Source of the DNA: Escherichia coli
GTDB taxonomy: Bacteria > Pseudomonadota > Gammaproteobacteria > Enterobacterales > Enterobacteriaceae
Strand: one strand, 5' to 3'
DNA length: 64,000 nt
Assembly (NCBI RefSeq): GCF_030013595.1
Contig: NZ_CP122769.1
Shown: positions 6,001 through 9,000 of the stretch, in pieces
Position numbering within the stretch: the stretch's first letter is position 1
Layout of the letters: the number at the start of each line of letters is the position of its first letter
Program-made: the position numbers

Positions 6001-9000
6001 AGCTGAGTGTTTGTGGGCACAATGAACCGCAATTTCATGATGGGAATGAAAGATGGCTGGTGGCCCGCTGATATGAACGCTTACCCTGCATAACGTTACT
6101 AACCACAATCTTTTCACTAAAAGAAAAAAGGGTTCCTCCGCTTTAGAGGAACCCTTTCAAAAGGTGCCGATGGCATACTAATCCACACCCTGAAAAGAGG
6201 GGGTTGCCCCCCTCTTTGTCAGCTACTTACCGGATTCGTAGGCCAGGTGTCAACGCCAAGATTTATGGCCGGTTTTCGCCATTTTTAATGTCCGCTATTT
6301 GATCACTTTTGCTGTCCGCTTTCCGCCATTTCATCATTACTGATTGGCGTTGCGTTTTTGGCCAGCACTCCGGCTTTGCGTTTTTCCTTTAACCGATAGC
6401 TTTCTCCTTTGATATTTAGTGTGGTTGAGTGATGCAGTAGCCGATCCAGGATCGCCGTTGCCAGCACGTTATCCCCGAACATTTCTCCCCAGTCTGCGAA
6501 GCCTTTATTTGACGTCAGGATGATGCTCGCTTTTTCATATCGACGGTTCAGTAGCCGGAAGAACAGGCTGGCTTCTTCTCTGTTCATCGGCAGATAGCCT
6601 ATTTCGTCCAGGATCAGCACCCGGGCATAACTCAGTTGTTGTAGCTGGCGCTCCAGCCGGTTTTCCAGTTTCGCTTTCATCAGCGTGGCGATCAGCCTGT
6701 CCAGTGGCATGAAGAGTACTCTGTGCCCCGCATCTGCTGCTTTTACACCGAGAGCAACAGCCAGATGGGTTTTACCAACACCAGGAGGTCCCAGCAGGAT
6801 CACATTCTCGCAGCGCTCCACGAACGCCAGCCCAGCCAGCTCCCGGACAACCTTACGATCGATACCTGGCTGGAAGGTGAAGTCGAACTGCTCCAGCGTT
6901 TTGACCCATGGCAGGCGAGCCTGCTTCAGCCGGGACTCCATGCCACGCTGATGCCTGCCGTTCCATTCCTGCTGCAGCGCCATACACAGGAACTCCCGGT
7001 AGTTCAGCTCTTTTTTCGCTGCCTGCTCCAGCAGGGTTTCAACGTGATAGCTCAGGTGCTCCATTTTCAGGCGGCTCAGCAGTGCTTCAAGTTCATGCAT
7101 CACAGCAGCTCCTCATAAGCGCTCAGTGGGCGATGCTCAACCATGCTGACCTGCTGCCAGAGCGGGGCATGGTGCTCCGGTACCGTCTGCCAGCCAGATG
7201 ATGCTGAACAGAGCCGGTGTGAGGCTACCTGCTGCTCATTACTGTAGATCCGCAACTCATCATCCAGCGATATACGTATTGAGACTGGTTGCCCGCACAG
7301 GTTTTCGGGAACACTGTAACGATTGCCGCCAACCTCGATATAGCTGTCCCAGGAGACATGGCGGATGTCGAAGTAACTGGTATCGAAGTCCGTATCCGGC
7401 AACGACTGCAGATGCTCCTGTTCCAGCGCGAAGCGTTGTTCTGGTGTCTGTCTGAACTGACGAAGCTCCCGCTTGTCAGCCACATCAGCCATCCACTGCT
7501 CCAGCTGTTGGTTAACATGGGCGAAGCTGTCGAACCTGCGGTACCGGACGAAGAAGTTCTCCTTAAGATATTTAACCATCCGCTCCACTTTGCCTTTGGT
7601 TCTGGCCCTGCGCGGGCGGCAGGCCCGTGGCAGGAAGTCATAGTGGTCGGCCAGCAACAGGAACCCGGAGTTGAACACCACTTTTCCGTTGTTATTTTTC
7701 AGCACTGCAGCTTTCTGATTATCAACCAGCACCGTTTTCACACTGCCACCGAAGTAGCGGAAGGCGCGAACCAGGGATTCATAGGTGTGTTCAGCGTCCT
7801 GCTTTGGTGCGGCGAAGACATGGAAGCGACGTGAGAACCCCAGCGTATTAACCGCGAAGTTAACTTTGCATCGTTGTCCCGCGACCTCCACTTCGATTTC
7901 CCCCCAGTCATGCTGCAGCTGGTAACCGGGCTGGGTCTCGAAGCGGACTGTTTTCTTTGATGGCCGCATTTTGCGTTTGGGCTGGATGTAGTAGCGCAGC
8001 ATGGAGCGCCCGCCGGTGTAACCCATCGCTTTAATTTCCGCGAGGATGACCTCGCCATTCCAGACGTTCTCAGCCAGACGAGTGTCGATATAGTCCATGA
8101 ATGGCTTCAGTTTGGCCATTTTGTGGCGTGTCTTCCTGGCCGGGGGCTCAGGATATTTAAGATAGCGTCTGACGGTGCGCTCAGAGCAACCCACCTGAGT
8201 TGCAATATCGACAATGTACGCACCCTGCTTACGCATTTGCTTTATCATGTAAAAGTCCTCTCTGCTCAGCATGTCGATGTCCTTTCTGGTGTGAGAACCT
8301 CAAGGAAACAACATGTTGGGTGGAGCGGACAACCCAAATGGCGAATTACAGTCTTATATCATTGGCGCTAACACCAGGATAGCAAATACCTCCCTTGTTC
8401 CGTCTTTCATCCGCAACTCGCAAAGCGAGTTTCGTGTGAGCCAGGTGAATATCAACAGCGTTAAACAAACTATTAATATGCACAAAACAATGGGTTGGTT
8501 CGGCATTTTCATGGCCTTCTTCTCCTTGCATTTAAGCAGGCAAGAGGCTACGCTGTGTGTGACTAGCATACAGGGGCCTCGGGTTAATTGAAAAATTACT
8601 CGGGGCTTTCTGCTTTTACCACAGTCAAACAGTGTTACCGCTGGCTGGGGCAAAAGCCTCCAGCACCAGCGTCATTATATCACTCTGCCCTGATCAGCCA
8701 AACACCCTGCCTGCATAAATCATTGATTTATAATTTATTTGACATGAGTCACTTCCGGTTGTCGGAGACAGTCTTTTTACACTAAAGAAAAGGGTAACGG
8801 GCAGCTGCTTGGTCGGAACATACAGTGCAGTTCCTGCCCGTTTAATTTCCGGATGCAATGGTAGGATCAGGAGGCACTGGTTCCGTTGATTAGGGAAAGC
8901 TTATGTGCCTGAATACGGCTGTATTCGAGATGGGATGGAATATTACAGATGCGCTCCAGTCGATCATGCAGCCTCGTGTAGGTCAGTCGATGAATACCGG

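Follow-up and report, generated by a model that had tools for sequence, protein, structure and literature searches.

An IS21-like insertion in codon 47 of hok on an IncHI2 resistance plasmid: a probably disarmed toxin locus with an intact sok region

What is left of a hok/sok locus once a mobile element has entered the last codons of its toxin gene? The question is raised by a 64,000-nucleotide stretch of Escherichia coli DNA (assembly GCF_030013595.1, contig NZ_CP122769.1; hereafter the window), in which an IS21-like insertion sequence (IS) of 2126 bp occupies positions 6248-8373, minus strand, within the hok gene of an IncHI2 resistance plasmid. Insertion of the element and disarming of the locus together form the explanation that we consider highly probable. 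The structural description of the insertion can itself be regarded as secure.

The empty site was rebuilt by deleting 6248-8378, which comprises the element and one CCAGG copy, to give a 670-nt query. NZ_CP122916.1 matched the rebuilt site without a break at 100% identity, as did at least 39 further IncHI2 plasmids (among the best 40 matches) at 99.9%, and in these plasmids the gene is annotated as a Hok-family toxin. Queries for the two junctions matched IS-free plasmids exactly up to 6247 and exactly from 8374. As homology stops at precisely these positions, CCAGG is common to both flanks, single-copy when the site is empty and duplicated in the window. The duplication is genuine and not a chance repeat, and the 5-bp direct repeat described in the first-pass annotation, made from the sequence alone, was thus confirmed against the empty-site plasmids. 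The two copies, both identified from the sequence and from comparison with IS-free plasmids, are:

8374-8378, no strand: target-site duplication copy CCAGG, hok side
6243-6247, no strand: target-site duplication copy CCAGG, side of the displaced hok 3' end

The element reads TGTCAACGCCAA... from the 6248 side and ...TTGGCGCTAACA at the 8373 side, with TG...CA termini; written as inverted repeats the termini are TGTCAACGCCAA and TGTTAGCGCCAA, and the terminal 12-mers agree at 10 of 12 positions. The left (istA-proximal) end lies at 8373 and the right end at 6248, with hok co-oriented with istA and istB. End nucleotides were identical, and flanks unrelated, in five other insertions (a second copy of the element and four relatives, one labelled IS21 by the Prokaryotic Genome Annotation Pipeline, PGAP). 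The 2126-bp istA-istB element with imperfect inverted repeats that the first-pass annotation had delimited at 6248 and 8373 therefore has the same ends as its IS21 relatives. Direct repeats were 4 bp long in five of the six insertions compared and 5 bp only at hok; a 4-bp duplication is usual for this element, the 5-bp one being the less common length. Both lengths lie within the 4-5 bp of the IS21 group. IS5376 yields 5-bp repeats in vitro (PMC10122671).

Both junctions were found in two PLSDB records only, from Salmonella enterica (NZ_CP117034.1, source pig faeces, Poland) and S. Typhimurium (NZ_OY754830.1). The insertion allele is real and inherited, and is present in these two separately deposited plasmid records. 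The window differs from them by one base, a run of five G instead of six at 6199-6203. This run lies in the stem of the hairpin that follows the hok stop codon; six G are present in NZ_CP117034.1 and most IncHI2 plasmids, and five in the window and a few other plasmids. Either a true polymorphism or a sequencing error in the homopolymer could explain the shorter run.

The effect on the reading frame can be read directly from the sequence. The break point falls after the first base of codon 47 of 52, and the resulting features are:

8354-8512, minus strand: chimeric hok' open reading frame (ORF), 52 aa; residues 1-46 native, residues 47-52 (VLAPMI) and the stop codon IS-encoded
6223-6243, minus strand: displaced hok codons 47-52 (AYESGK) and TAG stop; tblastn match to LAYESGK at 6246-6226
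8354-8569, minus strand: in-frame upstream ORF (mok equivalent), 71 aa, also with an IS-encoded tail; from ORF translation

The present ORF (8512-8354) starts MKMPNQ and the rebuilt ORF ends ...REVFAIL-AYESGK before its stop codon, both being 52 aa in length. Restoration of a ...FAILAYESGK end on excision, as had been proposed, was borne out by translation and by the contiguous IS-free homologues; translation of 8512-8354 likewise places the VLAPMI tail within the IS terminus, and the IS-free plasmids were found to encode AYESGK and not VLAPMI. Against the NCBIfam model NF007279 (cut-off 73 bits) the rebuilt Hok scored 122.8 bits and the chimeric protein 105.9 bits, the latter over residues 1-46 only. 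PGAP calls Hok proteins of 41 aa in the interrupted gene (window 8354-8479) and 39 aa in the intact gene, both from internal non-ATG starts. These starts look too short; the ATG at 8512 gives the 52-aa protein and a full match to the Hok hidden Markov model. A tblastn search of the window returned no further hok copies.

The ATG of the mok equivalent lies 57 nt upstream of hok in the same frame, as in K-12 mokC/hokC, with one common stop codon. In alignment columns 109-116 the F-type homologues carry one extra base after this ATG, which places their mok out of frame; the IncHI loci are in frame. An alternative mok frame starts at ATG 8531 and encodes 61 aa at present and 57 aa when restored (...GLRIR), a product that we take to resemble R1 Mok. 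It is the less likely candidate, since the mok start of the homologues aligns with the in-frame ATG at 8569.

The tail that has been exchanged is conserved: none of the six homologues departs from (A/D)YES, and K-12 HokC and HokE retain YE. R1 Hok is no longer toxic when it carries M46I, Y48N or a C-terminal FLAG tag, or when its stop codon is lost (PMC9841398). Because the tail is conserved and these R1 mutations abolish toxicity, replacement of AYESGK by VLAPMI is expected to inactivate or weaken the toxin, and the chimeric protein is probably inactive or much weaker than the native one.

Downstream of the displaced codons lie elements that would belong to the hok mRNA:

6194-6217, minus strand: GC-rich post-stop hairpin, the IS186/IS421 target in other plasmids; alignment pairs 338-361 with compensatory changes
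6163-6190, minus strand: long-range pairing elements, fbi (6163-6172) and an adjacent dcb-like segment; from the minimum free energy (MFE) fold of the restored mRNA and from homologues
6126-6158, minus strand: intrinsic hok mRNA terminator, a 14-bp stem followed by a T run; helix kept with compensatory changes

In the MFE structure of the restored 413-nt mRNA, nt 1-10 pair with nt 365-374 (window 6172-6163), just before the terminator, and the dcb-like segment next to fbi pairs with the leader. Independent predictions for five homologues (IncHI2, IncHI1, IncF and other plasmids) gave the same pairing of 5' and 3' ends, which makes six of six with the restored locus. Compensatory changes were seen within it at homologue alignment columns 3:395 (U-A to C-G) and 7:391 (G-C/G-U to U-A), and the post-stop hairpin and the terminator also covary. 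The pairing of the mRNA ends and the covariation identify 6126-6217 as the native hok 3' untranslated region in a tac/fbi arrangement. The hairpins at 6127-6213 had been read beforehand as displaced hok 3' structures, and this end pairing with its compensatory changes agrees with that reading. Pairing of tac with fbi keeps full-length hok mRNA inert (PMC9841398).

The 5' part of the locus is undamaged and consists of the following:

8674-8701, minus strand: hok promoter-like site, with -35 TTGGCT, 16-nt spacer and TG-extended -10 TATAAT
8510-8668, minus strand: hok mRNA 5' leader, intact, with tac (~8667-8657), the Sok target and the mok/hok ribosome-binding region
~8561-8618, plus strand: putative Sok antisense RNA gene, intact, with approximate limits set from the positions of the annotated K-12 sokC and sokE

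The -10 TATAAT lies 6 nt upstream of a conserved GGYGCU 5' end in six of six homologues. The Rfam family RF01794 (sok, which spans the hok leader) was matched with 81.1 bits at 8510-8668 on the minus strand (gathering score 59), and a scan of 5500-9500 returned no Rfam family other than sok. Across the leader and sok region the window and the IS-free plasmids do not differ (100% identity). A putative sok promoter was read by eye, with -35 TTGCAT at 8526-8531 and -10 TACGCT at 8549-8554; K-12 sokC, used as the positional reference, lies 49-107 nt upstream of the hokC ATG.

The locus resembles R1 hok/sok (parB) in its promoter, tac, Sok target, upstream leader ORF and 52-aa Hok ending in AYESGK, and also in its post-stop hairpin, fbi and terminator. 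It differs in that its Hok is ~64% identical to that of R1, in that its upstream ATG is in the hok frame (mokC-like) where R1-like loci are out of frame, in the compensating substitutions between its 5' end and fbi, and in being interrupted.

The IS21-like element thus jumped by simple transposition into hok codon 47, duplicating CCAGG, and from these features the following consequences can be proposed. Hok and the in-frame Mok-like product would each have lost the AYESGK tail and gained VLAPMI, giving a toxin that is inactive or much weaker. A hok transcript initiated at the intact promoter would pass through the leader into the IS, sense to istA, and would be separated by 2.1 kb from dcb/fbi and the terminator. 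The compact, stable and translationally silent full-length mRNA would no longer be formed, and its slow 3' processing into killer mRNA after plasmid loss would be abolished. The sok gene and the Sok target region would stay intact. The outcome would most likely be a disarmed locus, composed of a hok pseudogene and a live antitoxin gene, without post-segregational killing. Loss of post-segregational killing is, in our estimate, likely.

Folding of the interrupted transcript was considered with respect to the same pairing. The two pairing partners lie 2.5 kb apart in the present sequence, and in the first 300-600 nt of the present transcript the 5' end is predicted to fold locally. The 5'-end/fbi duplex (-19.2 kcal/mol) was the best along the whole read-through transcript, and a surrogate fbi inside the IS was rejected, the best internal site giving -17.7 kcal/mol. 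No terminator-like site was predicted on the hok strand inside the IS, nor beyond it until 6158.

The inserted element is itself complete. Its genes and termini are:

7100-8272, minus strand: istA, IS21-family DDE transposase, 390 aa; NF033546, 281.9 bits against a cut-off of 160
6303-7100, minus strand: istB, AAA+ helper ATPase, 265 aa, Walker A motif GPPGVGKT; NF038214, 298 bits against a cut-off of 200
8324-8373, minus strand: left (istA-proximal) terminal inverted repeat and sub-terminal repeats; CGCCA at offsets 7 and 31, GTCCGC at offset 44
6248-6331, minus strand: right terminal inverted repeat and sub-terminal repeats; CGCCA at offsets 7, 30 and 77, GTCCGC at offsets 43 and 67

The istA stop and the istB start overlap as TGATG (7102-7098), base 7100 being common to both genes. 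Within the termini copies of CGCCA recur at a spacing of 23-24 bp and those of GTCCGC at 24 bp, and the two arms agree at 70% over 37 nt. IS21 is a 2131-bp istA-istB element that was first found on plasmid R68.45. The window element shares with it the istA/istB overlap, the TG...CA ends, multi-repeat termini of ~23-bp spacing and short target duplications; it differs in length, at 2126 bp compared with 2130-2131 bp. Terminal inverted repeats made up of several repeats (L1/L2, R1/R2) with ~23-bp spacing have been described for the IS21 family (PMC10122671), and the CGCCA and GTCCGC repeats 23-24 bp apart are consistent with such termini. The right terminus (6248-6253, minus strand) reads TTGACA outward, a perfect -35 hexamer. 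A hybrid outward promoter running from this hexamer into the displaced hok 3' piece was rejected, no acceptable -10 following it.

Over its full length the element is 88.4-88.5% identical at nucleotide level to the elements labelled IS21 by PGAP, and IstA and IstB are each 95.1% identical at amino acid level. Its closest relatives (91.6% identical) are unnamed elements on Citrobacter and Klebsiella plasmids, and the best full-length match among 5,426 complete E. coli genomes was also 91.6% identical. PGAP names the element only as "IS21 family"; at 88% nucleotide identity it would probably receive an ISfinder name of its own. A second copy, 100% identical and in inverted orientation, is located at 52728-54853 of NZ_CP117034.1, outside the window, and is present in both PLSDB records that carry the hok insertion. 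A 4-bp TTAA duplication flanks this copy, whose target site is AT-rich and imperfectly palindromic, and a hypothetical gene (WP_272815992.1) is truncated by it; its empty site was found in more than 1100 plasmids. Because both ORFs pass the NCBIfam cut-offs and the identical second copy has a duplication of its own, the element is intact, autonomous and recently mobile.

Interruption of this locus is not confined to the IS21-like element. In IncHI2 plasmids IS150 is found at the equivalent of 8582-8585, inside sok and the leader, with a 4-bp repeat, and IS186/IS421 is found in the post-stop GC hairpin at the equivalent of 6199-6211, in both orientations and sometimes together with IS150. In Enterobacter-type IncHI2 plasmids homology ends 14 nt upstream of the hok ATG, adjoining relBE. 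The proportion of uninterrupted loci was estimated by even-step sampling of the match ranking, one row standing for ~23.6 records: ~70 of ~580 records at at least 99% identity, ~118 of ~463 at 95-99%, and ~190 of ~1040 IncHI2-type records overall (about a fifth). IncHI2 plasmids such as pSJ_255, NZ_CP075378.1 and NZ_CP042898.1 carry the same locus at at least 99% identity, interrupted by IS150 or IS186/IS421. These differ from the window locus in IS family and insertion point, and the IS21-like allele is rare by comparison, with two records against hundreds. The accessory modules of R478 include IS186B and IS150, reported without a link to hok/sok (PMC5955447).

A literature search on IS elements at hokA, hokC and hokE returned no papers, and comparable insertions in E. 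coli K-12 were read directly from the K-12 annotation. The distance from the stop codon to IS186 is 19 bp in hokC and 18 bp in hokE, the element lying in the homologous hairpin in both, and IS150 lies 32 bp upstream of hokA on its 5' side, cutting mokA. IS186 is thought to disrupt the hokC fbi and mRNA processing (PMC3562002). The conserved post-stop GC hairpin is, on the positions compared, a recurrent IS186 target, in K-12 hokC and hokE as in the IncHI2 plasmids. In K-12 hokC (gef) and hokE, as in the window, an IS parts an intact leader, sok and ORF from fbi and the terminator. There IS186 is downstream of the ORF, whereas here the IS21-like element is inside it (codon 47 of 52) and the protein is altered as well; those loci are chromosomal, whereas the window locus is on a conjugative IncHI2 plasmid. 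The IS21-like insertion inside the hok ORF is thus a new allele of a well-known kind, the IS-disrupted hok locus. The hok insertion is far less unusual than the first-pass annotation implied: hok loci broken by an IS are familiar, and most IncHI2 plasmids have an interruption at this very locus, so the event is an ordinary one.

Several observations weigh against a disarmed locus. The mutational data come from R1 Hok, a 64%-identical homologue, and not from the window Hok; the chimeric ORF keeps its length, transmembrane segment and cysteines, so that residual toxicity is possible; the hok/sok system is only presumed to have been working before the insertion; and, were a read-through RNA of 2.5 kb to be made, its 5' end would still have no better partner than the native fbi, end pairing over that distance during transcription being unlikely but not impossible. 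The locus might accordingly be supposed to work still, with the chimeric Hok' remaining a membrane toxin and killing, or another Hok function, persisting together with mok, sok and the promoter. The unchanged length of Hok', the intact residues 1-46 with the transmembrane segment and cysteines, the NF007279 score well above its cut-off and the fully conserved leader and sok region are in keeping with this. It is nevertheless unlikely, given the invariance of (A/D)YES, the abolition of R1 toxicity by Y48N, M46I, C-terminal extension or tagging, and an mRNA that is without the dcb, fbi and terminator needed for a stable inert mRNA pool. Even less credence can be given to an assembly artefact, or to recombination between the two IS copies, in place of simple insertion. 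Two identical 2.1-kb inverted copies on one plasmid can confuse assemblers or recombine, but each copy has its own matching duplication (CCAGG/CCAGG and TTAA/TTAA), the flanks of each join seamlessly in empty-site plasmids, and two separately deposited records share these junctions with the window, from which they differ by one base. The matched duplications at both copies rule out recombination between them, and the alternative as a whole is extremely improbable.

A different issue is whether the insertion was neutral or was selected for disarming hok and sparing sok, through a lower plasmid cost or retention of an anti-addiction antitoxin. Selection of this kind is conceivable, if doubtful. 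At least four different events have interrupted the locus across most related plasmids, and the IS21-like and IS186 insertions, both located 3' of the leader, spare sok. On the other side, IS186 clearly prefers the GC hairpin as its target, sok itself is cut by IS150 in the commonest event, a single ancestral event may underlie each of the large classes, and the IS21-like allele is present in only two near-identical plasmids. Under the preferred explanation of simple insertion and a disarmed locus, the hok promoter might in addition drive a hok'-istA-istB fusion transcript with the Sok target in its leader, so that Sok would gate the transposase of this IS copy. Such an arrangement is permitted by the co-orientation of hok and istA, the lack of a predicted terminator between them and the intact sok, but we hold it to be very unlikely. 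Were it true, istA expression would rise when Sok is scarce, for example just after conjugative entry or on transcription arrest, and what persists of the locus would be an anti-addiction module consisting of sok alone.

Elsewhere in the window, a RelE/ParE-family type II toxin gene is annotated at 27367-27663, minus strand; it is a further candidate maintenance system, which could cushion the plasmid against a lost hok function. At ~28618-31007, minus strand, two overlapping coding sequences for Ig-like domain proteins are annotated on the matching plasmid (28618-29343 and 29277-31007), one with an accession from the number range to which the IS proteins and the chimeric Hok of the plasmid also belong. 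The pair may be a frameshifted or split gene for a large repeat protein.

Taken alone the insertion matters little: it adds a further pseudogene of IS origin to those on large resistance plasmids, and it marks a narrow plasmid lineage (two Salmonella records). It does show that the IS21-like element is currently mobile in that plasmid lineage. On the chromosome of E. coli K-12 the hok loci are interrupted in a similar way to those of IncHI2 plasmids. IncHI2 plasmids are major carriers of mcr and extended-spectrum beta-lactamase genes; of those sequenced that have hok/sok, only about one in five appears to have it uninterrupted. As most IncHI2 hok/sok loci are interrupted, the annotation "Hok family toxin" is no evidence of a working addiction system when the stability of these plasmids is to be predicted.

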